A stretch of 64,000 bases of DNA from an uncultured Ignavibacteria bacterium (GTDB lineage: Bacteria; Bacteroidota; Ignavibacteria; SZUA-365). Of this stretch, positions 2,844 to 43,139 are shown in pieces. Below the pieces are notes generated by a model, which worked only from the letters and a program-made list of their open reading frames with translations, was not told the DNA's origin and ran no database searches. The stretch covers positions 127,556-191,555 of the forward strand of contig CAJXVM010000004.1 in NCBI GenBank assembly GCA_913061095.1, given 5' to 3'. The position numbers and the translations under genes were made by a program. Position 1 is the first letter of the stretch; each line of letters begins with the position of its first letter.

Positions 2844-3035
2844 AACGGCCTCCATGAGTGCAGGTGCGATGAACACGTACGACCGCACATCCCGGATGCG
2901 GGGAGCCGGTTGTGCGTTATAACGAGACATTGTTGTCTGAATAAATGAAATGTAGGGCCCCTCATCGGGAATGTCAAATTCCAACGAAAGAAAACGTGGA
3001 AAATGGAACGACAGGCCTGAAACGGCAGACCGGAA

Positions 3036-7100: not shown

Positions 7101-7405
7101 TTCTGGATGTGGAGGATGTCACAACGGTTCCGGTGGGATTTGACGTGGCAGTGTATCCGAATCCCATGACGCGAGGCGGCACGGTTGCCGTCGAGATGGG
7201 TGAGGCCACGTCGCTGACGGAGATCCGCGTGCTCGATCTGCTCGGAAGGGTGCGGCTCTCGCGCTCGCTGAGTGACTCGTCCGCTCCGTCACAGACGCTG
7301 CGGCTCGAGGCATCGGCGCTGGAGCCGGGCACCTACGTCCTGCAGCTGCAGCGGCGTGGCGGCAGCGTGCAGTTCGCCCGCTTCGTCATCGTACCGGCAC
7401 ACTGA
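4115..7405 (+). CDS. T9SS-secreted extracellular nuclease-like protein: lamin-tail domain + OB-fold + FN3 + PLD-superfamily (2x HKD) + Por C-terminal domain
   Basis: Signal peptide MRITPSLLYIITLFLLIMDAQAQ. The LTD is VVISEF...EFVEIYNPTGETVDISGWELQY. The OB-fold-like region is GEIVTVNGIVTVADQFGAPGYIQDHTGGIAIYD. The FN3-like segment is PNVTDIQSDAVTLSWSTGEEAEGFVRYG. Two HKD motifs are present (HNKFVIID and HHKYLIVD). The CTD VAVYPNPMTRGG...VQFARFVIVPAH is T9SS-type. Confidence 0.75.
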   Translation: MRITPSLLYIITLFLLIMDAQAQVADHVVISEFATRGASGNQAGEFVEIYNPTGETVDISGWELQYQSASGSAYSRLARIPDGTEMRPKSFYLITGSSWNGTPEADVTWPSSGMADNGNIRITDDSGRPIDRVGYGSGNNPEGSAAPNHGTSANDNSVERKASATSTAATLSTGGTEEFAGNGWDGNDNGADFIEQTNGRNPQNSASAAEPPSADGSGTATTSVQQAGAGDTLDLPIEFTPSAQFTISAMKVVIPSGFLWSGNAADVTLDSRIQAEVSVDADTVHLDRLTFSDVSATITVENLVAASSTGSYPFVILTSGGESFLPIQNPPAVFVRGGPIPIAEARENDANGVPVHLGEIVTVNGIVTVADQFGAPGYIQDHTGGIAIYDFDFTESVSIGDEVTLTGEITHFNGLTELESVTIESIPSTGNTVTPEVVSIEALLNDGQGGDERYESELVRLNNVTVNTSAWTVSGSGTNYKLSDGTFAIDVRIDNDVPFAGDPAPGGSFDIVGVLSQYKRDAPFAGGYQLMPRLGSDVIATGPRIIDGPNVTDIQSDAVTLSWSTGEEAEGFVRYGETAAFELGVAESDETAGGRENSALISGLDPATIYRVQAYSVANADTSFSQPMYVSTSSLNSTGDINVYFNQEVDNSIAGGVEAQGDVLIANRLMDRIDAAQYSIDLCFYSLSGRPGDDIAERLLAARDRGVRIRAIFETDNANTNAMRTLRNNVPAIVDNFDRTNAGAGLMHNKFVIIDARDRSSDRDDWVIMGSWNPTEPGTFDDAQNVVEIQDQALANAYTWEFEEMWGSGTDTPNSAASRFGARKLDNTPHLFFIGQDEPRIPMELYFSPSDQVSARLVNAVNDAGTSLYFATLTFTRDDIARALVDRHDEGIPVRGIMDNRTDQGSEFDYLQSSGVDVFLKKGLSGFLHHKYLIVDAESPVADAPHVITGSHNWSNAAEFSNNENTLVIHDRAIAEQYLQEWYTRYVDAGGTGVIVLDVEDVTTVPVGFDVAVYPNPMTRGGTVAVEMGEATSLTEIRVLDLLGRVRLSRSLSDSSAPSQTLRLEASALEPGTYVLQLQRRGGSVQFARFVIVPAH

Positions 7406-13500: not shown

Positions 13501-13614
13501 CTGCGTGTCTCCCACGAGGGCCGCTTCTCAAACGGCATCTCCAGCATCCAGTGCATGTACGCTCCCGAATTCGCCGCGCATACGGCGGGGGTGACGGTTA
13601 CCGTTAAGCCGTAA
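7546..13614 (+). CDS. Alpha-2-macroglobulin family protein (2022 aa) with thioester motif CSEQ
   Basis: Signal peptide MLLSIRLAFLLLITAPVIFLSTE with GGAGAC as RBS. The size and MG-domain-like repeats fit bacterial A2M. The thioester-type motif is PYECSEQVF (CxEQ). The C-terminal receptor-binding-like domain is present. Confidence 0.8.
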   Translation: MLLSIRLAFLLLITAPVIFLSTELLEGLSYTTNWSVFMKGDYEEQWKEVDRALDEGLPKTALELVEKIYERAQREGNRPQIVKAISYRVALHSVTSEEDETVLIDDLETEIDAAEQPVRAILTSMLADLYWNYYQQNRWRIHERTQVEDDPAADFRTWDASVFFDTTAALYLQALEPADLLKDTPVEAYRDILHAGKDGEQYRPTMYDVLAHRALDFFENDETDLPSPQQDFEVTGLEALAPLDAFIATEFTSPNPSNTKYNAILLYQDLLRFHRDGGREEAVIDLDLQRLEFSRRITWHEDADTTFFQAVESIYGKYSSSPMSAQAGYVLADYHFDAGNYVEALACCRKEIERFPESRGAVNCRALESRILQKELSLTVEESMPPDAPFLISAGFRNIRDVHFRIVRMPSDALFSDRRGYRSARERLEDLLDGNVVKEWSQTLPVTDDYKKHLVDLRGPALPLGTYMLFMSHGADFSLDENAIAYAWLRVTRLSLQSLNEQRGGPNRFFVLDAVNGYPLEDVKVEMFTQRWESGSYRYERVPMGDRRTDANGSFTLEPGRDRQGRFFRLSLGKDTLAIGQSFYAWQRGSERAQRRTMFFTDRAIYRPGQTVHVKGIVLEGSSERADYAVVKNVRSTVVFYDANHQKIHETDVRTNEYGSFNTVFTVPSGVLTGMMSIRNEWGSTPLRVEEYKRPKFEVEFEPVKGTYRLNETVNVTGVAKAYAGANIDGAEVSWRVVRRTRYPYWFWWWRPIPRGEEREIAHGTTRTDADGRYEISFEALPDKSVDKSTQPVFTYEISADVTDINGETHSATASVSAGYTSIELGLRTAETVDVHEEAKIVITARNLGGEPVATDGTIVVERLDAPDRILRDRVLPKPDTWLLSEAEFVRDFPHDVYRDENIPDTWPVAERVVERRFRCGEEGEDSLRLADLEPGRYRITITAKDPSGEDLELKKFITAYRAEAPVPYAAPELYVENSTHVEPGETTRFLYGSAYRDVRALYRVLRRGEPEREEWSDFDGDLRTFELTAQEKHRGGFVAQIFFVRNYRLYQKTVIISVPWSNKDLAIETATFRDKLRPGEKEEWRITIKGAKRDQVAAEVLASMYDASLDAIYRQEWPRFSWPFFAWHVQTSDHSFGGASGQLYMDDWNESQPSWNQQYDRLNLFLLGRGRYFYGQRAYMLKSTAVEEGSMAFAMGGEAPPPAAEAEDRAVRRDKMEAVLDEEAEVEEKPAEEGSGEGGLDMVKARTNFDETAFFYPDLLTDEEGNVVLRFTAPEALTRWKLRLYAHTPDLKTGYLEKTAVTQKELMVMPNMPRFLREGDRIVLMTKITNLSDTTLSGTAVLKLFDALSMQPIDGKFNLRDAERSFTAEKGRSTTARWEISVPEGVSAVTYRIVAKAGSFSDGEEMALPVLPNRMLVTETMPMNIRGGQTKEFTFEKLVNSGASSTLRHHQLTLEMTSQPAWYAVQALPYLMEYPYECSEQVFNRYYANSIAGHIANSNPKIKRVFDAWKNTDALLSNLQKNQDLKMLLLEETPWVMQGKDESERKKRIALLFDLNTMGNNLESAMLKLEKAQASNGGWPWFPGLPESRYITQYIVAGFGHLDALDITVSDERVARMIRRAVNFMDERMHADYLELKRREDDTFDPEKDYLNYLAIQYLYARSYFLDQEIPDRYDESVNFWLEESRKWWVRRNHMAQGMIALALHRFRDSDVPMAVVRSLKERALQNEEMGMYWKYDRGWFWYQAPIETQALLIEVFDEVANDMNAVEEMKIWLLKQKQVQDWGSTVATAEACYALLRRGSNLLASDKLVEVSMGGERIDPKAMGADIEAGTGHYRVDWRRGEIDPDMGRVTVKKEDQGIAWGALYWQYFEQLDKITPAQSPLQIEKKLFRQRNTEKGVVLEPITGENALEVGDVLKVRITIRVDRDMEYVHMKDMRGAGLELIEQLSGHRYQGGLIYYEAPRDASVNFFFHWLRKGVHVFEYPLRVSHEGRFSNGISSIQCMYAPEFAAHTAGVTVTVKP

Positions 13615-13659
13615 CCCGTGTAAGCGCAGACGCGAAATTCATCTCGCGCTGATCACGTA

Positions 13660-13739
13660 AGTGCAAAGTACAAAGTGCAAAGTGCAAAAGTCAGTCGACA
13701 CACACTCCGTTTTCCGGAAGTGTTTTGCACTTTGCACTG
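13660..13739. terminator. Bidirectional terminator hairpin with 16-bp stem plus GTGCAAAGT direct repeats
   Basis: gtgcaaagtacaaagtgcaaagtgcaaaag...tgttttgcactttgcactg. AGTGCAAAGTGCAAAA pairs with TTTTGCACTTTGCACT across a ~33-nt loop. It lies between the convergent A2M and hydroxylase genes. Confidence 0.6.
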
Positions 13740-13774
13740 TTGAATGATAGGTGCACTTCGAGACGGAGAGATAC

Positions 13775-14569
13775 TCATTCCCCCGAGTACACATCCCCCT
13801 TCAGCGGCCGGAAGGCGAACAGGTGTTGACGAATGTAGTTTTTCGGAAATTCAATTTCCCTGAGTCCGTAACCGGCGGGTTTTTTCCGCTCGGGAAGAAA
13901 GCCGGTGCCGAAGATCCAGTCCCATATCGCCAGCTTGGTGGCGAAGTTGTACGAGCCATCCGCGACGACATCGGAGTGATGCCAGCGGTGCATCTCCGGT
14001 CCGTTGATCACGTACTGCAGCTTGCCGGTGTGCACGTCGATATTCGAGTGAATCCACATCCCCCAGATCGCAGATATCATGCCTTTGTAGAGGGCGACCT
14101 CGGGCGCGGCGCCGAGCAGGACAATGGGAGCGAACTCGATCGTCTGATTGATCAGGATTTCCAGCGAATGGGAGCGCGATCCCGAGAGCCAGTCCACGTC
14201 TTTCGTGGAGTGATGCGCCTCATGGATGCGCCAGAGGCGAATCGAGCGGTGCTGGATGCGGTGGAACCAGTAGATGTACAGGTCATGCGTCACCAGGAAG
14301 AGCAGCACCTGCAGCCACACGGGCCAGTGGGAAATCAGATGCATCCGCGACAGCATCGTACTCGCGTCGATCCACTGGATCAGCCAGTTGATCAGCAGTC
14401 CCAGGAGATAGCTCTGGACAATGGAATACATGATCAGATCATTCCAGAATCCTTCGCGCAGAAACTTCTGCTGCTCCTCGTACGGGAACAGCCGTTCGAA
14501 TGTGACGATGATCGCCGCCGCGATCACGATGACGAACGGGGATATCAGTTCGAGGCTCATTGATTGCAC
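13775..14569 (-). CDS. Fatty acid hydroxylase / sterol desaturase superfamily membrane protein
   Basis: Histidine boxes HRIQH, HEAHH and HRWHH sit in a polytopic hydrophobic protein. Confidence 0.8.
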   Translation of the reverse strand: MQSMSLELISPFVIVIAAAIIVTFERLFPYEEQQKFLREGFWNDLIMYSIVQSYLLGLLINWLIQWIDASTMLSRMHLISHWPVWLQVLLFLVTHDLYIYWFHRIQHRSIRLWRIHEAHHSTKDVDWLSGSRSHSLEILINQTIEFAPIVLLGAAPEVALYKGMISAIWGMWIHSNIDVHTGKLQYVINGPEMHRWHHSDVVADGSYNFATKLAIWDWIFGTGFLPERKKPAGYGLREIEFPKNYIRQHLFAFRPLKGDVYSGE

Positions 14570-14668
14570 GCCATCCTGTATGACAACATTCTGTGTGACA
14601 TGGCAGAACCGGACTCCGAGGGGAATCCGGTCCTGCAGGAGGGGGAATTGGAATCAGGTGTGCGTCCG

Positions 14669-15574
14669 TTATGCGACTTCCGGTTCCTCCTGCTTCAGAT
14701 GCACACGGCGAAGTTTCTTGCGCGGTGCGAGCTCGCTCTCGTACACGCGCTTGATTCCGTCACCGAGTGACTTTTCGATATCTCGAATGTTGGCGACGAG
14801 TCGGTATAGACCGCCGATTTCGACTGATGCGGCATGATCGGAACCCCACATGGCGCGATCAAGCGTGACATGTCGCTCGATGAACGTGGCGCCCATGGCG
14901 ACGGCGGCCCAGGTCGGTGCGAGGCCCGTTTCGTGACCGGAGTACCCGATCGGGGTGTCAGGATATTTCTGCATCAGTGTGTTCAGCATGCGGAGGTTGA
15001 GCTCGTTCACATCACAGGGGTAGGCGGATGTTGAATGGGCGATGAGCAGATTGTCTGTGCCGAGAACTTCCACGGCAGCTGCGATTTCCTCTGTGGTGGA
15101 CATCCCCGTGCTGATCATCAGCGGCTTTCCGGTTTCTTTCATGTGCTTCAGCAGTGCATGGTCGGTCAGCGAGGCGGATGGCGCCTTGTAAACCGGCGGA
15201 TCGAATTTTTCGATGGCATCGACGGACGGTTCATCCCAGCAGGAGGCGAACCAATGAATGCCCTTCTCCCCGCAGTAGCGGTCGATCTCCGCGTATTCAT
15301 CTTCGCCGAATTCGATCAGGTGCCGGTAATCGATATATCGCATGCGACCCCAGAGCGTGTCGCGCTCGACATCCCATTGATCACGGGGCACGCACAGCTC
15401 CGGTGTGCGCTTCTGAAACTTGACTGCATCGCAGCCGGAGAGAGCGGCGCCGTCGATGAGCTTTTTTGCGAGGTCAAGAGAACCGTTGTGATTGATGCCG
15501 ATCTCGGCGATGACATACACGGGATGTCCGCTGCCGACGGTTTTCTCTCTGATCTGGCGTATGGGATTGCTCAT
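14669..15574 (-). CDS. N-acetylneuraminate/pseudaminate synthase (NeuB/SpsE) family PEP-condensing enzyme, without C-terminal SAF/antifreeze-like domain
   Basis: VYVIAEIGINHNGSLDLAKKLID...DAVKFQKR...GYSGHE is the NeuB TIM-barrel signature. The internal ATG at 15574 is preceded by AGGAGAAGG, whereas the ORF-track start at 15622 has no RBS. The protein is ~302 aa, too short to carry an SAF domain. Confidence 0.75.
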   Translation of the reverse strand: MSNPIRQIREKTVGSGHPVYVIAEIGINHNGSLDLAKKLIDGAALSGCDAVKFQKRTPELCVPRDQWDVERDTLWGRMRYIDYRHLIEFGEDEYAEIDRYCGEKGIHWFASCWDEPSVDAIEKFDPPVYKAPSASLTDHALLKHMKETGKPLMISTGMSTTEEIAAAVEVLGTDNLLIAHSTSAYPCDVNELNLRMLNTLMQKYPDTPIGYSGHETGLAPTWAAVAMGATFIERHVTLDRAMWGSDHAASVEIGGLYRLVANIRDIEKSLGDGIKRVYESELAPRKKLRRVHLKQEEPEVA

Positions 15575-15781
15575 GCGGTGATCCTTCTCCTGGTGCGGTG
15601 AATGTTTCCAGGAAAAGTACACGCGCTCCGTTACGGAAGATTGAGCGGTCCGTTAAAAGTGATGTAAGGATTGATGTGCCGAGGGTAAGCGCTGTGTTCG
15701 GGCTGTGTGAGGGGGATGGACTGCAGATGACAGATTGCGGATTTCAGATGTCGCATACCGCAATAATCAGTATCGACTATC

Positions 15782-15809
15782 TGCAATATGCAATTTGCAA
15801 TCTGCAATG
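15782..15809. repeat. 4x tandem 7-bp repeat TGCAATn in a 265-bp AT-richer intra-cluster gap
   Basis: ctgcaatatgcaatttgcaatctgcaatga, read directly. It sits between the KdsC-like and NeuB-like genes. Confidence 0.5.
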
Positions 15810-15839
15810 ACTGAGCAGGAATCGCAGGAGGGTGTTGGA

Positions 15840-16475
15840 TCAGGTCGACGTTTGTCGAAGTGTAATGATGGCCTCGGCGAAGTCACGAAATGCTCCATTG
15901 CCGCCGCGCCAGTGGCAGACGTACTGGGCGAGATCGTGAATCTGCGGCATGGCATCGGCCGGTGCGGCGGTGAATCCGCGTTCTCCGATCACGTCCATGA
16001 TGCCGATGTCGTTGACATCGTCTCCGATGTAGGCGATTTCCTCGGTGGAAAGGCCGGTTTCATTCCGAATGTGGCTGAGCGTTGCGATCTTGTCCCTGAC
16101 CCCGAGGTAAAGGTGTTTGAGTTTCAGCTTCTCGGCGCGCCGTTCGAGATTCGGTGACTGTTCTCCGGTGATGATGCCCGTCTCGATGCCGAGCAGTCCC
16201 AGGCGCTCCATGCCCATGCCGTCACGGATGCTGTAGCGCTTGACGAGCTCACCATCCGCGCCGTAGTACACGCCGGTGTCCGTGAGCACACCGTCGTTGT
16301 CGGTCAGGACAAGGCGGATGCGACGCGCCCGGCGCGCGGCTTCGTCATAACTCAAATGCTGCAGAGTGCCAAGCAGACTGGAGAGCACGGTGTTTGCGGG
16401 CAGAGTATGCATGCGGGAAACATACTTGTCACCTGAATGACTTCCAAAGCGGAGTTTACCACGCTGTCCAGCCAC
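15840..16475 (-). CDS. HAD-superfamily KdsC-like (3-deoxy-ulosonate-phosphate) phosphatase
   Basis: RLVLTDNDGVLTD (DxDGV motif I), GIITGEQS and IGDDVNDIGIM (motif III) resemble KdsC/YrbI. The start is ambiguous: GTG at 16475 overlaps the SDR stop, and the alternative ATG is at 16412. Confidence 0.65.
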   Translation of the reverse strand: MAGQRGKLRFGSHSGDKYVSRMHTLPANTVLSSLLGTLQHLSYDEAARRARRIRLVLTDNDGVLTDTGVYYGADGELVKRYSIRDGMGMERLGLLGIETGIITGEQSPNLERRAEKLKLKHLYLGVRDKIATLSHIRNETGLSTEEIAYIGDDVNDIGIMDVIGERGFTAAPADAMPQIHDLAQYVCHWRGGNGAFRDFAEAIITLRQTST

Positions 16476-17277
16476 CGTCGACCACCAGATTTGCTCCTGT
16501 CATGTAGCGGGACGCATCGCCGGCGAGAAATACAATTCCACCGCGGTAATCCGTCGGACGCGCCATCTCACCCAGCGGCGTGCGGCGCGAATAGTTTTCC
16601 ACGAAATGCCTGTCCTGACCGTTCTGCACTCCGCCCGGTGACAGCGTATTTACCCGCACACCGGCCGCTCCCCAGTACGATGCGAGGAAGCGTGTGAAAT
16701 TGATGATTGCTCCTTTGGCCGTCGGATAGACGGCGGATTTGTAAAACGTCTGCGTGCCGTCCTCATTCCGGTACAGCGACTGGTCCGGCGCAACCATCCC
16801 GTATGTCGATGCGATGTTGATGATGCTGCCGCCGCCCTGTTCAGCCATGTGCGCGCCGAACACCTGGCTGCAGATGAAGGCTCCGGTCACGTTGACGTCC
16901 AGGCAGCGCCGCCAGAGATCAATCGGATAGTTCTCGAATCGGGAGGCCTCCAGTGCGGATACGGGATCCTCCACCATGTCGTTGATCGCGGCGTTGTTGA
17001 CGAGAATGTGTACGCGGCCGAATGCCTCGACAGCAGCATCGAACAGTGCGCGGACGGAGACGGGATCGGTGATGTCCGCCGCCATGCCCATGCAGCGCCG
17101 ACCGCTTTCAGCGGAGAGCTCCTCCGCGAACGACGCGCAAGCTTCGGCGTCCAGGTCGGTGGCGATGACGCTGGCGCCCGCCTCGGCAAGTGCGCGGCAG
17201 TGCTCGCGGCCGATCAGACCGAGTGCCCCGGTGACCACCGCCGTGCGGCCCTCGAGAGAAAACATCGAAGAAGTCAT
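16456..17277 (-). CDS. SDR family NAD(P)-dependent oxidoreductase
   Basis: TGALGLIG Rossmann motif, NNAA, and catalytic YPTAK. Confidence 0.8.
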   Translation of the reverse strand: MTSSMFSLEGRTAVVTGALGLIGREHCRALAEAGASVIATDLDAEACASFAEELSAESGRRCMGMAADITDPVSVRALFDAAVEAFGRVHILVNNAAINDMVEDPVSALEASRFENYPIDLWRRCLDVNVTGAFICSQVFGAHMAEQGGGSIINIASTYGMVAPDQSLYRNEDGTQTFYKSAVYPTAKGAIINFTRFLASYWGAAGVRVNTLSPGGVQNGQDRHFVENYSRRTPLGEMARPTDYRGGIVFLAGDASRYMTGANLVVDGGWTAW

Positions 17278-17281
17278 GCTT

Positions 17282-18235
17282 TCAGTTGTTCCTTGTCTTC
17301 AGTTCAAGATCGGCATAGACGGGATAATGATCCGACAGGGTGAAATCGTGGAGCACGCCGTAGTCATGCACATGCCAGTGACGGCTGAACATGATGTAGT
17401 CGAGCGTCCGATTCGGCAGCCCGGTCGGATAGGTGTAGAACGGCAGCGAATCGTCGTGCGGCACCGTGCGCAGGCCCGTATCCTCGAGAATCCGCAGCGT
17501 ACTGTCGTCATGGTAGTTGTACCGGTCGATATCCCCCTTGCCGAATTTCTCGATACGGCAGCCCGGAGCGACGGTGTTGAAATCCCCCATGAATACGATC
17601 GGCACATCCCCGAGCTTTCGCAGTACCTGCGCGATGCTCCGGGCCTGGCGCATGCGGGATTCCGGACTGTACGCATGGAGGTGGGTGTTGCCGATCCAGA
17701 TGATGCTGTCCTTGAGGAGAAACGGCGCCAGCGTGAAACCGCAGGAGGCGAGAAAGAATACTTTCCCCGGCAGCAGGTGATTGTAGGCCTGCTCCGAAAG
17801 CTTGGGCAGCTGGCTGAGCATCAGGTTCTGGTAGCGGAAGCCCGCGAATCCGACACCGTGCTCAAGTACGGAGTCGAAGCCGCTGAGAACGCGGTAGTGA
17901 TCGCGCTGCCGGTATTTCCCGATGATTTTTTCACTGACACCCAGCACGCCGTTGAAGACTTCCTGCAGTGCGACGACGTCGTAGTTCTGCCGGTGGCGAT
18001 TCAGCCACTCCGAGATGAAATACGCGTAGGCACGCGTTTCATGCATCAACTCGATGCGCTGCGCTTCCTCCTCCTTCGCACCCGCGAGTGCGAACGGAAG
18101 CTTGGGACCCTGGCCGCGATGCGTGTTGATGGTGAGGCAGCGGAGTCGGTATTCACGCAGCAGCGGCTGTGTGTCATGCGATTGAAGCAGGGAGGAGCGC
18201 TTGCGCAGTGCTTCCGATGCTATCTGTGTGATCAT
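17282..18235 (-). CDS. Endonuclease/exonuclease/phosphatase (EEP) family protein
   Basis: The C-terminal SDHYPV motif and the GDFN and NTHL signatures match the EEP fold. Confidence 0.65.
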   Translation of the reverse strand: MITQIASEALRKRSSLLQSHDTQPLLREYRLRCLTINTHRGQGPKLPFALAGAKEEEAQRIELMHETRAYAYFISEWLNRHRQNYDVVALQEVFNGVLGVSEKIIGKYRQRDHYRVLSGFDSVLEHGVGFAGFRYQNLMLSQLPKLSEQAYNHLLPGKVFFLASCGFTLAPFLLKDSIIWIGNTHLHAYSPESRMRQARSIAQVLRKLGDVPIVFMGDFNTVAPGCRIEKFGKGDIDRYNYHDDSTLRILEDTGLRTVPHDDSLPFYTYPTGLPNRTLDYIMFSRHWHVHDYGVLHDFTLSDHYPVYADLELKTRNN

Positions 18236-18265
18236 GAGCCGGGTCCTCGCTGTTTCATGCTGGAA

Positions 18266-19606
18266 TCAGGCAAGGGGCTTTCTCGCCTTGGTGTGGAAAT
18301 TGCTTGTCTTACGGAACACCGGCTCAACCGGCTCGCCGCGCAGGCGCGCGGGAAGCTCGCCTGCATCAACGGCATCACGGAGCAGGCCGAGGACCTCGCG
18401 GTATGCCGACAGCGTGTACGCGACGTCGTCATCGCTGTGACTGAATGACATGTTGTGGAAACCGGACCACAGGATGCCACGTTTGATCATCTCCTGCTGC
18501 ACGTAGGATTTCTGCAGCAGTGGATCGCCGGCGGATGCATCGAAGGTGACGATGGTGCGGGGAGCGAAACCCTTGCATCCGACGTACGGCATGCTCAGCT
18601 CCGCGGCGATGGCATTGACACCGTCCCTGAGTTTTCGTCCCTGATGGAACAGATGTTCCTGCACGTTCCGGCGGCGCATCTCCTCGATCGTGGCTCTGGC
18701 CGCTGCCAGCGAGAGCGCCTCTCCTCCGAAGGTCGTGTAGAAGAAGACATCCTGCTCGCAGAGCTCCATGATGTCTTTCCGCCCGGTGAGGATGGATAAG
18801 GGCATGCCGTTTGCGACCGCTTTCGAGAAGCAGGCCAGATCGGCCTTGATCCCGAAGTATTCCTGTGCCCCGCCCAGTGCGAGACGGAATCCCGTCCACA
18901 TTTCATCGAAAATCAGCAGTGTGCCGTTGCGCTCGCAGGCATCTTTCAGCTCGTGCAGGAAGTTGTTCTCTGGCGCATCGAACACCACAGGTTCGAGAAT
19001 CACGCATGCCGTGTCCTCATCCAGCGAATCAATGACGGATTGAATGTCGTTGTAGTTCACCGTGTACGTGAGATCACGCACCGCCTGGGGAATGCCCCGG
19101 TTGCGGTCGGTCACGGCAATGTACCAGTCATGCCAGCCATGGTAGCCGCAGCAGAGCACCGTGCTGCGGCCCGTATACGCTCGCGCCAGGCGCACCGCGG
19201 CGGAAGTCACGTCGTTGCCCGACTTGGAATACCGCACCATGTCCGCATTGGGGATGACCTCGCGGAGCAGTTCGGCGACCTCCACCTCGAGAGGATGCAC
19301 GAGCGAAAAGGTGATCCCACGCTCGAGCTGCACGCGAATGGCATCATCGACGGCGTCGTATGCGTATCCGAGCGAGATGGGACCGATGCCCATGTTGTAG
19401 TCGATGTACTCGTTTCCGTCAACATCGACGATGTGCGCCCCCTTCGCGCGGTCGATGAACTTCGGAGCCGCGCCGCGCACATACTGACCGGGACCCTTGG
19501 CGAGTGTCTGCGTCTGGCTGGGGATCAGTCCGAGCGCCCGCGCATACAACGCGTCGGATTGTGTGATATCGGGATAGTCCTGGTTGAACGCAATGGTATT
19601 TGGCAT
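18266..19606 (-). CDS. Class-III PLP-dependent aminotransferase (glutamate-1-semialdehyde aminomutase-like)
   Basis: GNEYIDY...SGNDVTSAAVRLAR...LIFDEMWTGFR...FSKAVANG contains the PLP lysine. Confidence 0.8.
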   Translation of the reverse strand: MPNTIAFNQDYPDITQSDALYARALGLIPSQTQTLAKGPGQYVRGAAPKFIDRAKGAHIVDVDGNEYIDYNMGIGPISLGYAYDAVDDAIRVQLERGITFSLVHPLEVEVAELLREVIPNADMVRYSKSGNDVTSAAVRLARAYTGRSTVLCCGYHGWHDWYIAVTDRNRGIPQAVRDLTYTVNYNDIQSVIDSLDEDTACVILEPVVFDAPENNFLHELKDACERNGTLLIFDEMWTGFRLALGGAQEYFGIKADLACFSKAVANGMPLSILTGRKDIMELCEQDVFFYTTFGGEALSLAAARATIEEMRRRNVQEHLFHQGRKLRDGVNAIAAELSMPYVGCKGFAPRTIVTFDASAGDPLLQKSYVQQEMIKRGILWSGFHNMSFSHSDDDVAYTLSAYREVLGLLRDAVDAGELPARLRGEPVEPVFRKTSNFHTKARKPLA

Positions 19607-19612
19607 GGTGTC

Positions 19613-20578
19613 TCAGAGATAGGTTTTGAACAGACTGCTCGTGTGATTGAGCATGGGTTTTTTGTCTCGATCTCCCTCCAGTGCTCGCAGAATGCGCACG
19701 GCAATGGCGCTTCCGGTGAATCCCTCATGTTCGAGCACGCGGTCGAGCGTTGCCGGTGTGAACCAGCGATGCTTCAGCGCAATCGGAAGGACGTCGGCCG
19801 TGAGCTGCTGCTGCATCATCAGTTCGGCGAGGATGGTGGTCAGTCCGCCCGTGAGGAAATGATCCTCGAGCGTGACGACCAGCGAACAGTCGCGGACCGC
19901 GGCGGCGATGGTTTCTTCATCTATCGGTTTGAGGCTCCGCAGGTTGATGACGCGGCATGCGAGGCCCTCGGCGTTCAGAAGCGTTTCCGCCGCGAGCGCT
20001 TCGCGCAGCAGAAACCCGTAGGTGAGAATGGCGACGTCATTGCCGTCGGTGAGTGTTTCCGCCTTCCCGATTGCAAACGGCGCGTGCGCCGTGACGGCCG
20101 GGAGGGCGTTGAAGCGCACATAGGCGGGAAAGGGGGATGCGACGATCCGCGGCAGCGCTTCCAGCATGTCGTCGTTGTCCGCGGGCGCGAACACCTGCAT
20201 CGGCGGGATGCCGCGCATCAGTGCGATGTCTTCAACTGCCTGGTGTGTCGGACCGTTTCCGTCCGACAGGAATCCGGGGACGGCACCGATGAGTTTCACT
20301 GGGAGCCCAGGAATCCCCACATCCGTTCGGATGAATTCGAATGCGCGAAGTGTCAGGAAAGTTGCCAGCGCATGCACGATGGGGATTCGTCCCCGCAGGG
20401 CCAGTCCGGCAGAAGCACCGACCATTGTCATTTCACTGATACCGACATCAATCAGTCGATCGCCGACGTGAGGAGGAAGATTTCGGATTGCAGCGCGATT
20501 CTCCGCGGTCATGATGACCACACGCTCATTCTCTGTGGTCATCTCTCGAAGAAGTTCTTCGTATGTCATGGTATGCAT
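19613..20578 (-). CDS. Transketolase C-terminal section (pyrimidine-binding + C-terminal domain subunit)
   Basis: It resembles split-transketolase subunit B, with GISEMTMVGASAGLA and a PTHQAVEDIALMR-like region. Confidence 0.75.
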   Translation of the reverse strand: MHTMTYEELLREMTTENERVVIMTAENRAAIRNLPPHVGDRLIDVGISEMTMVGASAGLALRGRIPIVHALATFLTLRAFEFIRTDVGIPGLPVKLIGAVPGFLSDGNGPTHQAVEDIALMRGIPPMQVFAPADNDDMLEALPRIVASPFPAYVRFNALPAVTAHAPFAIGKAETLTDGNDVAILTYGFLLREALAAETLLNAEGLACRVINLRSLKPIDEETIAAAVRDCSLVVTLEDHFLTGGLTTILAELMMQQQLTADVLPIALKHRWFTPATLDRVLEHEGFTGSAIAVRILRALEGDRDKKPMLNHTSSLFKTYL

Positions 20579-20607
20579 TCAGCTGCTGGTGAAGGAGAAT
20601 GAGGAAT

Positions 20608-21465
20608 TCAGCGCACGTGAAGCGTGTCAGAAGTCAGGGCCGCATTGCCGATGCCATGCAGCTCATCGAGCAGCATGTCGACTTCCTCCGCGGTGAAATT
20701 GACGAACCACCGGTCCGCCCGCGCCTCGATGCTCGGAAGACCCTTGCCGCGCACGGTGTCGGCGATGATCATGCTTGGACGCCGCTTCTCAAGCGGCAGA
20801 TCGGAAAAAACCTCGTCCATTGCGTCGAAAGAATGCCCGTCGATCCGGCGCACCGCCCAGCCGAAGGAAGCGAATTTCTCCTCGAGCGGCTCCAGTGGAA
20901 TCAACTCCTCGGTGCGCATGTTCGCCTGGAACCCGTTGCGGTCAACCACCACCACGAGATTATCGAGCTTGTGCGCGCCGGCGACAAGGCAGCCTTCCCA
21001 GATCGATCCCTCGTTGAGTTCACCGTCACCGAGCATGACAAACACGCGGTTTGCGGCCTTGCGCAGCTTGATGTCCAGAGCAACGCCGATGCCCACCGAC
21101 AGCAGATGTCCGAGCGACCCCGAGTGGAATTCCACCCCCGGAATGTTCCGGTTCGGGTGCCAGTAGATCGAATCGTTCGTGCGCAGGTGATTGCCCAGCC
21201 GCGCTCCGTCGATGTATCCGAGTTCGGCGAAGGTCCCGTAAACAGCCGGGACATCATGCCCTTTCGAGAGCAGGAAGTAATCCCGGTCGGGATCGTCAAC
21301 GCGGTCCGGCGCGATGTTGAGAATCCTGCGATACAGGTAGACGATGAGATCCGCGCATGACAGCGATGCACCGATGAAACACCCTCCGTCGGTCGCCAGG
21401 CGGATGATGTGTTCACGGACCCGCATCGCGGTTTGCAGCAGTTCCTGTTTTTCAGATGCGTTCAT
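20608..21465 (-). CDS. Transketolase N-terminal section (TPP-binding subunit)
   Basis: GHDVPAVYG...GSLGHLLSVGIG...GDGELNEGSIWE is the TPP-binding motif. The likely start is the internal ATG at 21465; the ORF track extends to 21513. Confidence 0.75.
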   Translation of the reverse strand: MNASEKQELLQTAMRVREHIIRLATDGGCFIGASLSCADLIVYLYRRILNIAPDRVDDPDRDYFLLSKGHDVPAVYGTFAELGYIDGARLGNHLRTNDSIYWHPNRNIPGVEFHSGSLGHLLSVGIGVALDIKLRKAANRVFVMLGDGELNEGSIWEGCLVAGAHKLDNLVVVVDRNGFQANMRTEELIPLEPLEEKFASFGWAVRRIDGHSFDAMDEVFSDLPLEKRRPSMIIADTVRGKGLPSIEARADRWFVNFTAEEVDMLLDELHGIGNAALTSDTLHVR

Positions 21466-21484
21466 GGAGTTTCCCGTTTGCGTT

Positions 21485-22321
21485 TTATGAAATGGCGAGA
21501 GAGCCGCGTGCATCTCTCGACCGTGGTGTGCGTGTTCTGTTCGCGTCGATGGTCTTCAGCTCACTGAGATGGTGACGGTACCAGTTGACGCCTGCATACA
21601 CATCGTTGATGCGAGCCAGCTCGGGTTCGCGCTGCAGCAGCCCGAGAATGTCGTCAATGCCGAAGCGCGGTGCGCCCTCCGAATACAAGGCGTCGTAAAC
21701 CTTCCGGATAAACTGGTAATCTTCGGGGTAGTCGATGGTCCAGCGATGCGACATGGAATAATCGAAGCCGCTCTCCCATGTAACGTTCCCGATGCGGTAT
21801 CGATCGGGCTGCTCCCAGATGAACGGTGTGGTGTGTTCGCGCTCCAGCGGTCGGGAAGCCTTTTTCCACGCCTCATGCAGTATGGCGATCGGCATCACCT
21901 CGACGTCATTGCCGTCTGGCCAGCTCGCGGGATGAAGATTGCTGACATAGTCGTAGCTCCGGTGATGCGCGATCCAGTACGACAGCACCCGGTCGATGAC
22001 CGCAGGATCAATCAGGGGACAGTCGGACGGAATCTTTACGACGACGTCTGCGTCATAGAGCAGCGCTGCGCGATAGTGCCGGTCGAGCAGGTCGAACGGA
22101 TCACCGCTGTAACAGGGTATGCGCTGCTGGCCGCACAGCACCCGGATATCCGTGTCGTCGGGATCCGTCGTCGTCGCAACCACGACCGTCATTGGAGTCC
22201 GTGCCATTCGAACCCGCTCCACCATGCGCAGAAGCAGCGGTTTGCCCGCAAGGGGGAGCAGCACCTTGCCCGGCAATCGGCTGCTCCCCGTGCGTGCCTG
22301 AATGATGGTGATGATATTCAT
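21485..22321 (-). CDS. Acylneuraminate cytidylyltransferase family protein (SpsF/PseF/KdsB-like CMP-sugar synthetase)
   Basis: The true start MNIITIIQARTGSSRLPGKVL is the classic CMP-Kdo/NeuAc synthetase N-terminal motif. The upstream 81 codons of the ORF are a non-coding extension. Confidence 0.75.
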   Translation of the reverse strand: MNIITIIQARTGSSRLPGKVLLPLAGKPLLLRMVERVRMARTPMTVVVATTTDPDDTDIRVLCGQQRIPCYSGDPFDLLDRHYRAALLYDADVVVKIPSDCPLIDPAVIDRVLSYWIAHHRSYDYVSNLHPASWPDGNDVEVMPIAILHEAWKKASRPLEREHTTPFIWEQPDRYRIGNVTWESGFDYSMSHRWTIDYPEDYQFIRKVYDALYSEGAPRFGIDDILGLLQREPELARINDVYAGVNWYRHHLSELKTIDANRTRTPRSRDARGSLAIS

Positions 22322-22325
22322 GCTG

Positions 22326-23384
22326 TCAGCTCCGCATCGTGGAGAAAAGACGTGCAACGTACCGCAGGGGACGTACCCCGCCCTGATACAGCGGAGCATT
22401 GATCCAGCGGTCCGTCCGCCGTGATGTTGGTGTGTCTGCGAGCACGCTGCGGCAGACGTCGGCGATATTGCGTGCGGAAGTCCCGCCGTTCTGTATCGGT
22501 GTCTGCCGGCGCAGTTCCTCCATGTCGAATTCCGAGTACACTTCCTTGCCGAGTGCGAGGCCAATGTATACGACAGTGGAAAAGCGCGTGATGAGTACCT
22601 CGCAGTTTGCGATCATGTGCTCGATATTGCCATCGGTGAAGACGAGCGCGTCTGGGACTTCCTCTCGAATTTCCTGGATCGCGCGTGCATGATTCTCATT
22701 CGGGTGGAGCTTGAAGATAAGCTGCCGCCCGGCGGCGACCTCCCGGCTGCGCCGGATCAGCCTGCGCCTGTTTTCGAACTTGAAGGTTTCGCGCGCGTCA
22801 CTCGTCGCTACGAGCACGAAATCCCGATGCGGAAAATCGTTGTCATGGAACTGCGCGCAGTTATCGAAGTTGGGAATACCGGTCACTTCCAGTTTCTCCG
22901 GTGTTACCCCCTTGCGGATGAACAGGTCGCGGTATCCCTCGCTTGCGACGCAGAATTTTTCATATGTGTCGCTGAGTCCTGTCGTGGCCGTGCTCGCGAG
23001 ATACCGTGGCAGACGGAGATGCCTGACGAGATGATAGGCGAAGCCTTCCGGATCGGTCATCCCCTCCTGCACGAGCACGATCGGACAGCGGCGCGCGTTG
23101 CTCGGGACGATGAGATCACTGCAGGTGAGGACGAGGTCATAATCGTTGTTCATGCCGTATTCATCTATCTGCAGATCATGTGACCGCAGGTAACGCAGGG
23201 CACGATTGCGCAGCTTGTTGCCGAGGATCGTGAATTCCAGAAACCCGTTGCGGCTGAGCCAGCGCAGCAGCGCGTCACCGTAGAACGGCGTGAAGAAGTG
23301 CTCCGCCTCCGGCAGGTGCTGCGCGATCTGATGCATCTGTGACGTCTGGTTCAATGATCCGCATATATAGAGAATTCGAGGCAT
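22326..23384 (-). CDS. Hypothetical protein, possibly GT-B fold glycosyltransferase (TagF/KpsS-like) acting on the CMP-sugar
   Basis: Rossmann-like N-terminus MPRILYICGS and a KLHPNE segment. This is cluster context only; no firm family assignment can be made by eye. Confidence 0.3.
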   Translation of the reverse strand: MPRILYICGSLNQTSQMHQIAQHLPEAEHFFTPFYGDALLRWLSRNGFLEFTILGNKLRNRALRYLRSHDLQIDEYGMNNDYDLVLTCSDLIVPSNARRCPIVLVQEGMTDPEGFAYHLVRHLRLPRYLASTATTGLSDTYEKFCVASEGYRDLFIRKGVTPEKLEVTGIPNFDNCAQFHDNDFPHRDFVLVATSDARETFKFENRRRLIRRSREVAAGRQLIFKLHPNENHARAIQEIREEVPDALVFTDGNIEHMIANCEVLITRFSTVVYIGLALGKEVYSEFDMEELRRQTPIQNGGTSARNIADVCRSVLADTPTSRRTDRWINAPLYQGGVRPLRYVARLFSTMRS

Positions 23385-23391
23385 GTCGTTC

Positions 23392-24447
23392 CTACGCTTT
23401 CATGAAAGCGGGTTTGAAAGGATTGACGCGAAGATACGCGAACAGGCTGATGCCGCTGCAGGCCCACAGCAGCTCCTTCCCCCGACGGAGAATGATAAAC
23501 GCGGCCGCGATGGCGGCGGCTTCCGGAATTGCAAAGGCCGTCAGTATGCTGAGGATTCCGACCTCCTGCGCGCCGATGGCGGACGGGATGAAGAAAAAGA
23601 CAAGCTTGACCACGGAAAGCGTTGCCTCGAGAGCGATTGCCTGCATGATGCTCATGCCGGATCCCAGAAGTGCCAGGATCAGCCAGGTTTCGAACGCCAT
23701 GGCGAACCAGCTGAGCAGAAACAGCAGCAGGGCGCGCAGCAGTCGCGTGCGGTGATGGCGCGCGAAGCCCGTCACATACCGGTCGATGTCTGCGACGGCA
23801 TTGCGGATGCGCGCAGCACCGCGCTGCAGCAGGGGAATCCGAATGCGTCCGAGCAGCGCGGTGATCTGTGTCAGCCGCGCACCGCTGTATGGCAGAGAAA
23901 GCACGATCCCCGCGGAGGCGGCGAGCAGGAAGGTTCCGGCGATGGAGGATGGGGATGAAAACAGTCCCAGCTCCCCGAGCGATGACGCGTGAAGCGAAAA
24001 TGCGAAGATCAGCCCGGTGATGATGAAACCGATCTGCGCGACGGCGATGTTGATTTTCGACAGCAGCGTCGATGCCACGGCGTCGGTCATCCGCAGACCG
24101 AACCGATCACGCAGCAGCAGCGGACGCAGGGTTTCCGCGAATGCGACGCCGGCGGGGAAGGTGTTCATGACGGCATCTGTCGACAGTCGGATGACGAACA
24201 TCTCACGAAGCGGCACGTGCTCACTTCCTGTCACGCACTGGCGCCAGCCGGCCGCGTCCAGAAGGATGACGGTACCGTAAGGAAGAACGATCAGTGCTGC
24301 CGCACCGCCGATCCCCTCAAGCAGACGAAGCACCTGCGCACCGTCCAGTTCACGGAACTGGCTCCATATGAACCACGCGAGCACTGCCACAATGAACAGC
24401 CGGACCGCATTCAGGAGCATCGATCGTATGGATGGCCTGGATACCAT
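23392..24447 (-). CDS. Lysylphosphatidylglycerol-synthase-TM-region (UPF0104) flippase-like integral membrane protein
   Basis: ~8 predicted TM helices, 351 aa, with the typical LPG_synthase_TM architecture. Confidence 0.6.
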   Translation of the reverse strand: MVSRPSIRSMLLNAVRLFIVAVLAWFIWSQFRELDGAQVLRLLEGIGGAAALIVLPYGTVILLDAAGWRQCVTGSEHVPLREMFVIRLSTDAVMNTFPAGVAFAETLRPLLLRDRFGLRMTDAVASTLLSKINIAVAQIGFIITGLIFAFSLHASSLGELGLFSSPSSIAGTFLLAASAGIVLSLPYSGARLTQITALLGRIRIPLLQRGAARIRNAVADIDRYVTGFARHHRTRLLRALLLFLLSWFAMAFETWLILALLGSGMSIMQAIALEATLSVVKLVFFFIPSAIGAQEVGILSILTAFAIPEAAAIAAAFIILRRGKELLWACSGISLFAYLRVNPFKPAFMKA

Positions 24448-24541
24448 GGGGTGAAGCTACACCGCACATGTTCCGGGCGCATTAATTTCCGGTAAGTTTC
24501 TTGTAGCGTGAGGGAAACAGGATGCTAACAATCCGCTGTCG

Positions 24542-25342
24542 CTACCGCGGGGGATTAAGCATGGCGATCACCCTGGCGTGCAGGGCGGGATGGGCCGCGA
24601 CCAGACTGTTTGAGGAGAGAGGGTCGTCACCTTCCCATGACGTGATCATGCCGCCGGCACCGCGGACGATCGGGATCAGCGCGTGCATGTCCCAGGGATT
24701 GAGCAGCGGATCGGTCATGATGTCGGCGTATCCGGAAACCAGCAGTGTGTATCCATAGCAGTCTCCCCAGCTGCGGAAGATGCCGGCGGCGGCGGCGAGC
24801 CTGTCAAAGGCCTGTCCGTTCCTGTGTTTCCAGACATCCACGTGATCGGTCACCAGCACGGTCGCGTCACGAATGCCGCGTCCTGTCCGCATGCGGACGG
24901 GCGCACCGTTTCGGGTTGTCGAGTGTCCGTCACCGACGAAGCGCTGCTGCAGCCGGGGCATGTTGATGCAGCCAAGCAGCGGCTCTCCATCCGCGCAGAG
25001 AGCAATGAGAGTGCCGAACAGTGGTGTTCCGGAAATGAATGATTTCGTCCCGTCAATGGGATCCAGCACCCAGCGCAGGGTGGCGTCCTCCTGATGCGTC
25101 CCGAATTCCTCACCGAGGATGCCATGATCGGGATGTCTGTCCATGATGACATCTCGCATTGCCGTTTCCGCCTCCCTGTCAGCCGCAGTCACGGGTGAGT
25201 CATCTGTTTTCCTGACCACCGGAATCCGGTGATGGTCATACCGCCGGATCACGTCAGCACTGACATCCGCAAGGCGGTGCATCGTTTCGAGGTACGATGT
25301 GGTATCCGCTTCAGAGAGATGGTCACGTGTTGTCGATGGCAT
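24542..25342 (-). CDS. Inositol monophosphatase family protein (IMPase/HisN/CysQ-like)
   Basis: LDPIDGT, GEEF and WD...G motifs. Confidence 0.75.
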   Translation of the reverse strand: MPSTTRDHLSEADTTSYLETMHRLADVSADVIRRYDHHRIPVVRKTDDSPVTAADREAETAMRDVIMDRHPDHGILGEEFGTHQEDATLRWVLDPIDGTKSFISGTPLFGTLIALCADGEPLLGCINMPRLQQRFVGDGHSTTRNGAPVRMRTGRGIRDATVLVTDHVDVWKHRNGQAFDRLAAAAGIFRSWGDCYGYTLLVSGYADIMTDPLLNPWDMHALIPIVRGAGGMITSWEGDDPLSSNSLVAAHPALHARVIAMLNPPR

Positions 25343-25405
25343 CGTCCTTCCGGGGTACAGATGATTCAGGGGGCAGGAAACCCATGATGTCTCCGTGCGT
25401 GGGAA

Positions 25406-26017
25406 TCAGTTCGTGACGTCCAGCGACTCCACCCAGAACACTTCACAGGCGCCGTCACCGGTGTCATCGCGGGAAGTGGAGGAGATCCATCGCCAGCCGT
25501 CCGTTGTGGTGACCTTGACGAGATAACCCTTCATGCGCACGATGCTCCCTTCATGCACGTTGTCGAGCACATCGCGCACCGCGTCATCGGCGGGGAGGAT
25601 GTGCACGTTGGCGCTGGATGTCTCGATCTCCCGGCGCGGGATCGGCATCAGGTCGTTCACTTTCCATTTGTACCATCGATGCCCCTGCGAGATATCCAGC
25701 TTGTCGATCACAAAGGAGTCCGACATGCGGCCCCACCCGAGGGCCAGATCCACGGGAGACAGGTCCCCCTCGCGACCGCTGCTGTATTCCTCGCGACTCA
25801 GCACGCGGGCATGGATGTCGTAATCAGCGAGTGCGGTGACCATGAATTCCTCGTGCAACCACGGTGTTTTCCGGGAGGGCTCGGTCTGCAGGGGCACATC
25901 CGGACACAGGACGCCGACGTCATGCTTGATGACGGTCTCCGGCCAGAAATGTAATACTGAATAGCCCAGTGCGATCGCGATGATGCTCCACAGCAGAACA
26001 CGTTTCCAGATACTCAT
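25406..26017 (-). CDS. Hypothetical membrane-anchored protein
   Basis: N-terminal TM helix VLLWSIIAIALGYSVL. A 4-bp overlap (ATGA) with the upstream lipoprotein gene suggests an operon. Confidence 0.45.
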   Translation of the reverse strand: MSIWKRVLLWSIIAIALGYSVLHFWPETVIKHDVGVLCPDVPLQTEPSRKTPWLHEEFMVTALADYDIHARVLSREEYSSGREGDLSPVDLALGWGRMSDSFVIDKLDISQGHRWYKWKVNDLMPIPRREIETSSANVHILPADDAVRDVLDNVHEGSIVRMKGYLVKVTTTDGWRWISSTSRDDTGDGACEVFWVESLDVTN

Positions 26018-43120: not shown

Positions 43121-43139
43121 GTGTTCTCCTGTAAGTGCG

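Follow-up and report, generated by a model that had tools for sequence, protein, structure and literature searches.

A split transketolase-like enzyme without the catalytic histidine pair, encoded in a widespread module for a putative CMP-activated amino-ulosonic acid

Why does a gene cluster of the sugar-nucleotide type contain a transketolase, and what does that enzyme do there? The question is raised by two adjacent genes, here called TK-N and TK-C, in a stretch of 64,000 nucleotides from an uncultured Ignavibacteria bacterium (contig CAJXVM010000004.1, positions 127,556–191,555; hereafter the window), for which the original prediction was a dedicated C2-ketol transfer that builds an extended or branched carbon skeleton. 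Our analysis suggests, with a modest degree of confidence, that the two genes encode the halves of one thiamine diphosphate (ThDP)-dependent enzyme of the transketolase/DXS/E1 superfamily that is distinct from the pentose-phosphate transketolase and is dedicated to making a CMP-activated 3-deoxy-2-ulosonic acid with an amino substituent (Kdo- or sialic-acid-like) from central metabolites. The pair is laid out as follows.

20608..21465, minus strand: TK-N, the half with the ThDP diphosphate-binding (PP) domain, 285 aa (Pfam Transketolase_N, 1.3e-28)
20579..20607, minus strand: spacer of 29 nt between the TK-N stop and the TK-C start (sequence read and gap calculation)
19613..20578, minus strand: TK-C, the half with the Pyr and C-terminal domains, 321 aa, ATG start (Pfam Transket_pyr, 2.2e-26; Transketolase_C, 3.2e-25)

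The predicted adjacency, the 29-nt gap and the position between a cytidylyltransferase gene and an aminotransferase gene proved exact, as judged from open reading frames (ORFs), Pfam and an independent gene call on the public source contig (ENA ERZ508512 NODE_31, 248 kb), which gave the same genes and lengths. The domain matches are much too strong to be due to chance. TK-N starts at the ATG at 21465; a gene beginning at an in-frame ATG farther upstream (21513) would run into the preceding one. The two genes are co-oriented and divide a PP domain from Pyr and C-terminal domains in the manner of a split-gene enzyme, and a natural fused homologue of 674 aa (P0124), encoded within the same type of cassette, spans both. 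The closest solved structure for the pair is the split-gene transketolase of Carboxydothermus hydrogenoformans (TK-N, PDB 6yak, 1.7e-50, 36% identity; TK-C, PDB 6yaj, 8.6e-46, 32% identity); identity to Escherichia coli TktA is 27% for TK-N and 25% for TK-C. With the best NCBIfam transketolase model TK-N scores 211 bits and TK-C 163 bits, both far under the cut-off of 488; with the dxs model (cut-off 466) TK-C scores 159 bits and TK-N 32 bits, which leaves the pair outside 1-deoxy-D-xylulose-5-phosphate synthase (DXS) as well. The DXS residue His49, which aligns with transketolase His26, is histidine in E. coli Dxs and phenylalanine in the window family.

We mapped the active site of E. coli TktA onto the family through full-length and split bridging sequences, and conservation was read from family alignments (E. 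coli numbering unless stated). In published transketolase structures, His26 and His261 hydrogen-bond the C3 hydroxyl of the donor and the aldehyde oxygen of the acceptor, Arg358, Ser385, His461 and Arg520 form the clamp on the sugar phosphate, Asp469 contacts the C2 hydroxyl of the acceptor, and His100 and His473 hold the dihydroxyethyl-ThDP intermediate. The family retains His66, His100, Asp155, Asn185, Glu411, Phe437 and His473; the ThDP/Mg2+-binding motifs (LGDGELNEG...DRNG, LSKGH with His66, and GISE) are invariant, as are YWHPN and GPTHQ with His100 and His473, and TK-C keeps the cofactor-activating glutamate and the THQ histidine as Glu49 and His112 of its own numbering. The catalytic histidine pair, by contrast, is gone. 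His26 is replaced by Phe30 within the TK-N signature motif GGCFIGASLS, without exception in 20 of 20 and 25 of 25 sequences, and the His261 segment reads R-W-F-V-N-F (the second TK-N signature motif, also invariant), with Trp253-Phe254 at the equivalent position and no histidine. Most of the sugar-phosphate clamp has been lost together with Asp469: His461 is valine and Asp469 asparagine in TK-C, the Arg520 site falls in a two-residue deletion or is alanine, and Ser385 is alanine within a rebuilt loop (TAENRAAIR) that brings two new invariant arginines, Arg28 and Arg32 of TK-C. Only Arg358 is possibly preserved: the invariant last residue of TK-N (Arg285) aligns with it, so the enzyme may still have at least one arginine for anion binding. 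Judging from these residues, the enzyme is still able to form a ThDP-bound hydroxyalkyl intermediate but has neither the acid/base pair nor the greater part of the phosphate clamp.

Among 150 representatives of the wider family (50% identity clusters), the histidine-less signature is restricted to the clade of the window and a few sister clades, and the first histidine is kept by nearly all remaining split relatives; both histidines are missing from the transketolases of the window and of the loci L091, L098 and L096. The clade-wide replacement of the pair implies a different chemistry. The Carboxydothermus enzyme illustrates the contrast. Like the window pair, it is encoded by two genes (PP domain, then Pyr and C-terminal domains) and has the ThDP/Mg motif, His66, His100, Glu411 and His473, whereas it carries the canonical catalytic and phosphate-binding set (GHPGGSLS, WHG, THAG, GEDG and the GRS arginine) where the window family has CFIGASLS, RWFVNF, AVPG, DGNG and a deletion at the GRS arginine. 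The split point also differs: in the window, TK-N ends with the residue that aligns with Arg358. Separately, many distant relatives of 580–675 aa (P0163, P0182, P0184, P0211, P0220, P0230, P0248 and P0252) have a TK-N-like domain at the C-terminal end (approximately residues 320–670), an order that suggests fused or circularly permuted transketolase-like architectures, and in most of them the second catalytic position is W-Y in place of W-H.

TK-N and TK-C are the fourth and fifth of 11 co-oriented genes on the minus strand; the other nine are given here in order of transcription, the pair lying between the third and the fourth of them.

23392..24447, minus strand: LPG_synthase_TM membrane protein, MprF flippase-like and HpnL-like (Pfam/NCBIfam)
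22326..23384, minus strand: 352-aa protein of GT-B fold and unnamed family
21485..22321, minus strand: KdsB/NeuA-family cytidylyltransferase (CTP_transf_3), 278 aa (Pfam 6.4e-23; PDB 6oew, 3e-32)
18266..19606, minus strand: class-III (glutamate-1-semialdehyde (GSA) aminomutase-like) pyridoxal-phosphate-dependent aminotransferase, 446 aa (Pfam Aminotran_3, 1.3e-46)
17282..18235, minus strand: Exo_endo_phos-family phosphoesterase, a lineage-specific addition between the aminotransferase and dehydrogenase genes (Pfam)
16456..17277, minus strand: classical short-chain dehydrogenase/reductase (SDR), best matches to sugar-acid dehydrogenases (gluconate 5-dehydrogenase, KduD)
15840..16412, minus strand: KdsC/YrbI-family HAD phosphatase of the ulosonate-phosphate phosphatase type, 190 aa (TIGR01670, 134.9 bits, cut-off 106.95)
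14669..15574, minus strand: NeuB-family ulosonic acid synthase, condensing with phosphoenolpyruvate (PEP), 301 aa (Pfam NeuB, 1.6e-73; PDB 1vli and the SAF-less 6ncs)
13775..14560, minus strand: FA_hydroxylase-superfamily membrane di-iron enzyme (Pfam 1.6e-29)

Intergenic gaps are 4–43 nt from LPG_synthase_TM through the HAD phosphatase, followed by gaps of 265 nt and 108 nt before the final two genes. Seven of the products (aminotransferase, KdsC-type phosphatase, TK-N, TK-C, SDR, CTP_transf_3 protein and a NeuB without SAF domain) form a module that recurs far outside the Ignavibacteria. A scan of one genome per species gave at least 588 confirmed matches, and 80 loci were kept; their labels include Bacteroidota, Ignavibacteriota, Kapaibacteria, Chlorobi, Myxococcota, Acidobacteriota, Gammaproteobacteria and Chloroflexi, homologues of the 352-aa protein extend the range to KSB1 and Nitrospirae, and about nine phyla are represented among the labels of the loci and proteins that we examined. 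Minicystis rosea (Myxococcota), Ignavibacteria and a 5.2-Mb contig from the Bacteroidia, which shares the flanking synteny of the window too, have the same gene order, with TK-N proteins that are 69–78% identical. Counted over 86 loci, many of them clipped by contig ends, the cytidylyltransferase gene was found in 80, the GT-B protein gene in 77, TK-C in 76, the aminotransferase gene in 66, the SDR and NeuB genes in 58 each, an FA_hydroxylase gene at the cassette end in 48, the HAD phosphatase gene in 46, LPG_synthase_TM in 26 and Exo_endo_phos in 8. Clustering of all flanking ORFs revealed no recurrent gene beyond the cassette genes and LPG_synthase_TM. The earlier placement of the pair in a glyco-type cluster is borne out, and its operon position is conserved across many phyla.

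Some genomes depart from this order. At several loci (L031, L034, L040, L053 and L076) the operon breaks directly after TK-N, reading DUF2147, GT-B protein, cytidylyltransferase, TK-N and then unrelated genes, and TK-C with the remaining genes presumably lies elsewhere; at another (L017) the TK-N/TK-C pair stands by itself. We regard the operon as split in the genomes of L031, L034 and L017 because the flanks hold unrelated genes, and these three loci offered no hint of function. Methylomagnum ishizawai carries the cassette on a plasmid (pRS11DPr1; L096, NZ_AP019784.1, 158543–183397).

Two sister clades, whose enzymes are 46–48% identical to those of the window and likewise lack the histidine pair, hold the same seven enzymes in clusters of the polysaccharide type. 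In the first, an O-antigen-like cluster encodes an aminotransferase, a NeuB fusion, a cytidylyltransferase, TK-N, TK-C, an SDR, glycosyltransferases and Wzy. In the second, the order is aminotransferase, HAD, TK-N, TK-C, SDR, cytidylyltransferase, SAF-less NeuB, a LIC12162-family protein and a Wzx-like flippase; elsewhere, neuABC genes co-occur with LIC12162-family transferases and with 'surface carbohydrate biosynthesis proteins' (PMC6679464). Since the seven enzymes are shared across the clades, we take them to be the functional unit, which has the look of a sugar-nucleotide pathway. Only the clade of the window has added the GT-B protein (352 aa, absent from the sister clades), the hydroxylase and the MprF-like protein.

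The sequences show directly which genes are present, which active-site residues are exchanged, how far the module is conserved and in which contexts it lies; the order of steps, the donor, the product and the acceptor proposed below are our inference. Because the histidine pair and most of the sugar-phosphate clamp are lost while the binding of ThDP and of the intermediate is kept, the enzyme would most likely use a 2-oxo-acid donor of the hydroxypyruvate type, and use it decarboxylatively; decarboxylation is preferred because this half-reaction needs no base at C3, and the hydrophobic leaving-group pocket favours it. The adjacent aminotransferase would then aminate the carbonyl product of the ThDP enzyme, the SDR would set the oxidation state, NeuB would join the resulting aldehyde to PEP, the KdsC-type phosphatase would take off the phosphate and the cytidylyltransferase would activate the product to a CMP-linked amino-3-deoxy-2-ulosonic acid. 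In the version found in the window, the GT-B, MprF-like and OlsE-like proteins might transfer, flip or tailor this product on a membrane-lipid or envelope acceptor. The strong Pfam NeuB and CTP_transf_3 domains count in favour of such a route, as does the phosphatase, which lies above the YrbI/KdsC family cut-off (its score with the Kdn-9-P phosphatase model is 143 bits against a cut-off of 180). In the NeuB protein, the motifs IAEIGINHNG, KFQ, SGHE and ERH are visible in the alignment to 1vli, and Pfam gave no match to a C-terminal SAF domain. The cytidylyltransferase reaches 82 bits for CTP_transf_3 against a cut-off of 22.6. The relatives of the aminotransferase in the PDB include GSA aminomutases, an aminopentol aminotransferase and aminoglycoside C-6' aminotransferases, aldehyde and terminal-carbon aminators among them, and its NCBIfam scores are 392 bits for PRK06209 (cut-off 486) and 271 bits for GntE.

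Several observations weigh against this scheme. The invariant His120 (in GSLGH), Asn256 or the TK-C residues Arg28 and Arg32 could take over the acid/base duty and permit carboligation, and the invariant Arg285 together with the two new invariant arginines makes an anionic sugar-phosphate substrate possible. The aminotransferase might have the ulosonic acid as its substrate instead of the product of the ThDP enzyme. Both the cytidylyltransferase and NeuB lie below every equivalog cut-off: all NCBIfam KdsB and PseF models were below cut-off for the former, and for the latter the NeuB model gave 243 bits against 400 and the PseI model 186 bits against 340, that is, outside the known synthase equivalogs (NeuB, PseI, LegI). 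In structural comparisons the 352-aa protein is closest to NeuC and to 2-epimerases, as would suit a route from UDP-sugars. The link to lipids, finally, consists of adjacency in 5 of approximately 85 loci and of a hydroxylase match far below its cut-off.

The activation of Kdn and Kdo is a close known parallel. Like the window, it combines a condensation of PEP with an aldose phosphate, a KdsC-family phosphatase and a CTP_transf_3 cytidylyltransferase (the reference enzymes are Kdn-9-P synthase, the Kdn-9-P phosphatase BT1713 and CMP-Kdn synthetase, and KdsA, KdsC and KdsB). Unlike these systems, the window has a SAF-less NeuB below the equivalog cut-offs, a cytidylyltransferase that aligns to the KdsB models over its N-terminal half only, and three extra obligatory partners, namely the ThDP enzyme, the class-III aminotransferase and the SDR. 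A second parallel is offered by the aminoshikimate route to 3-amino-5-hydroxybenzoic acid (AHBA), the early steps of which involve RifL, RifK, RifM, the split transketolase Rif15A/B and RifH. Compared by enzyme class and not by sequence, it has an oxidoreductase, an aminotransferase, a HAD phosphatase, a split transketolase and a PEP-condensing synthase of an amino-3-deoxy-ulosonate phosphate, whereas for most steps its proteins belong to other families (of the GFO, DegT and DAHP-synthase types), it has no cytidylyltransferase and its product has a shikimate-like fate.

In the most far-reaching reading, the histidine-less enzyme and its class-III aminotransferase would mark an as yet undescribed route to a new class of amino-ulosonic acids, present in hundreds of environmental species of about nine phyla, with the lineage of the window using the acid as, or on, the head group of a membrane aminolipid (OlsE-like, MprF-like and OlsB/OlsA-linked genes). 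We hold this reading to be speculative, and on balance unlikely. In one specific version of it, the aromatic residues Phe30, Trp253, Phe254 and Phe257 would take the place of the histidine pair to accommodate an ammonium or iminium group at the carbon where cleavage occurs, in parallel with the formation of 4-amino-3,4-dideoxy-D-arabino-heptulosonate 7-phosphate (aminoDAHP). An imino-aldose would then leave the enzyme, and NeuB would convert it to a 4-amino-3,4-dideoxy-ulosonic acid.

A lipid destination comes to mind from a minority of loci. On the plasmid of M. ishizawai, the cassette is followed by genes for LplT, an OlsB-like GNAT N-acyltransferase and an OlsA-like PlsC acyltransferase, and an OlsB/OlsA-like pair flanks the cassette in four more loci (L022, L025, L032 and L039; Ignavibacteriota and Bacteroidota), giving five loci from three phyla; no OlsB-, OlsA- or OlsF-type genes were found in the window or in most loci. 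This adjacency points to a membrane lipid or the envelope as the destination of the product. The ornithine-lipid system (OlsB, OlsA and OlsE) resembles the cassette in that the hydroxylase at the cassette end has OlsE, the hydroxylase of the ornithine-lipid head group, as its sole NCBIfam match, and differs from it in that this match is 136 bits against a cut-off of 475 and that the window has no OlsB/OlsA pair. According to a review of aminolipids, no known ornithine-lipid modification uses a nucleotide sugar (PMC12971839). A link to sphingolipids was also considered, on account of the overlap with sphingolipid-producing phyla and the aminoglycosphingolipid of Chlorobium, and was abandoned: no gene like that of serine palmitoyltransferase recurs near the cassette, and the Aminotran_1_2 protein of one locus (L095) is a generic aminotransferase.

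Could the enzyme nevertheless be a genuine ketol transferase or carboligase, as the original prediction held? A C2 (glycolaldehyde) unit would then be added to an aldehyde, the resulting ketone aminated and an aldehyde made by the SDR, giving a 2-amino-2-deoxy-aldose (or its phosphate) that NeuB would extend to a 5-amino, sialic-acid-like ulosonic acid with a longer skeleton. Such a scheme gives all seven enzymes a role and fits the retention of His100 and His473, as well as the adjacency of the transketolase and aminotransferase genes in all three clades. It also has a precedent in a Streptomyces split transketolase that is 42% identical to the window enzyme, is dedicated to specialized metabolism and adjoins an aminotransferase gene in a LysW-type cluster. 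Clusters of this type (the diamino-dihydroxy-heptanoic acid (DADH) route of the vazabitide/azinomycin type) are known for ketol transfer, and the aminotransferase probably aminates the carbonyl that the transketolase makes; work by Hasebe et al. in 2016 reportedly established a transketolase-mediated C2 extension followed by transamination in the DADH pathway. The same enzyme provides the argument on the other side, as it keeps both histidines, whereas the pair that handles the acceptor carbonyl is missing from every member of the window family; its partner is a DegT-type aminotransferase, and its context is LysW, ArgB, ArgC and a nonribosomal peptide synthetase, without NeuB, KdsC or cytidylyltransferase. 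Asp469, the reader of the acceptor C2 hydroxyl, is asparagine in the window, and central metabolism already provides the common ketose phosphates. Canonical ketol transfer is ranked below decarboxylative use of a 2-oxo acid because the Streptomyces enzyme has retained both histidines; we consider it improbable, if the strongest of the competing explanations, and the proposal of C2-ketol transfer is thus not upheld in its original form. Chain extension or branching through a non-canonical chemistry is possible.

A different use of the same enzymes would resemble the biosynthesis of aminoethylphosphonate: the 2-oxo-3-deoxy acid phosphate made by NeuB would be decarboxylated by the ThDP enzyme, the aldehyde aminated and the amino-polyol phosphate cytidylylated, and the 352-aa protein would be a TagF-like phosphotransferase that attaches the phospho-alcohol as a head group. 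This is quite improbable. His100, which binds the C1 hydroxyl of the donor, is kept, yet a 3-deoxy acid lacks this hydroxyl; the known substrates of CTP_transf_3 enzymes are ulosonic acids and not phospho-alcohols; the above-cut-off KdsC-type phosphatase would strip the phosphate that is needed; and the sister clades do without the 352-aa protein.

Slightly less probable still is a route from a UDP-sugar to a nonulosonic acid, in which the 352-aa protein would be a NeuC-like hydrolysing 2-epimerase, the SDR and the aminotransferase would tailor the sugar, and the ThDP enzyme would stand in for an acetyltransferase by providing an acyl or C2 substituent. The structural matches of the 352-aa protein fit this idea, and the protein may be either a transferase of the activated sugar or a NeuC-like hydrolase/epimerase; its homologues are named 'hypothetical' without exception. 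The profile comparison with E. coli WecB, however, is weak, with WecB His213 aligned to aspartate. The module of the sister clades lacks this protein and must therefore start from something else, the SDR is classical and not of the 4,6-dehydratase type, the aminotransferase is of class III and not DegT, and a KdsC-type phosphatase implies phosphorylated intermediates. That the pair is simply the split housekeeping transketolase of the organism is very improbable: active split transketolases exist (PDB 6yak/6yaj) and no other, canonical tkt was found in the 64-kb window, but the loss of catalytic and phosphate-binding residues, scores far under the equivalog cut-offs, and a fixed place in an accessory operon with patchy contexts across phyla, a plasmid included, agree with the earlier claim of a dedicated, non-housekeeping enzyme.

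Dedicated split transketolase-like enzymes and activation modules for Kdo, Kdn and nonulosonic acids are already known kinds; what is new is the combination of a clade-wide replacement of the histidine pair, its lock-in to a NeuB/KdsC/cytidylyltransferase module and the very wide spread of the whole. The histidine-less clade, the seven-enzyme partnership and its lipid-flavoured version have no curated family match, and a literature search that excluded most subscription journals found no published description of the cassette and no product to link to the module. On this point, a paper on NeuB phylogeny notes only SAF-less NeuB proteins in environmental bacteria, and the aminolipid review, which dates from 2026, does not mention such genes. 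Carriers include lineages from wastewater and soil and phototrophic ones. If our reading is true, both a new ThDP reaction and a common sugar acid of the envelope, which may serve as a lipid head group, await discovery, and culturable carriers are at hand in M. ishizawai, Flectobacillus rivi and M. rosea. Current annotations of the pair as 'transketolase' or 'DXP synthase domain protein' can mislead reconstructions of pentose-phosphate and isoprenoid metabolism from metagenome-assembled genomes. At the M. ishizawai locus, RefSeq names TK-N a '1-deoxy-D-xylulose-5-phosphate synthase N-terminal domain-containing protein', with a terpenoid gene ontology term, and the cytidylyltransferase a 'glycosyltransferase family protein'; both names are likely annotation errors.

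Some features of the operon itself deserve mention. The longest ORF for the cytidylyltransferase (21485–22564, TTG start) would extend approximately 240 nt into the upstream gene for the 352-aa protein and is probably not real; the ATG at 22321 gives the 278-aa protein, agrees with the public gene calls and leaves a gap of 4 nt. One locus (L018) has Exo_endo_phos and no KdsC-type HAD, and the phosphoesterase might therefore replace the HAD protein as the phosphatase. An IMPase-family gene upstream of the operon (24542..25342) was considered as a further member and set aside as a mere neighbour, given its match to the histidinol-phosphatase HisN (271 bits against 275) and its recurrence in close relatives only. 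Promoter and terminator scans of 13000–26000 gave hits that were no commoner than in shuffled sequence. Convergent with the cassette end is a gene for a 2022-aa alpha-2-macroglobulin-like protein (MG2, A2M and bMG10 domains; 7546–13614, plus strand), and one Bacteroidia genome (L003) shares this neighbour as well as the genes for FabF, RNase III and GcvP on the opposite side.

Elsewhere in the window, two large secreted proteins have type IX secretion C-terminal sorting domains (870–2984, minus strand; 4115–7405, plus strand); one of the proteins also contains a lamin-tail domain, DUF5689 and two PLD-like domains. Along with the nearest relatives, the sorting domains assign the organism to the Bacteroidota/Ignavibacteriota group. 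A gene on the minus strand (41651–43219) encodes an NrfA-type cytochrome c552, a pentahaem nitrite reductase (Pfam 4.9e-178). A 757-aa AroB–AroA fusion (56591–58864, plus strand) joins DHQ_synthase and DHQS_C domains to an EPSP synthase domain, linking non-consecutive steps of the shikimate pathway.

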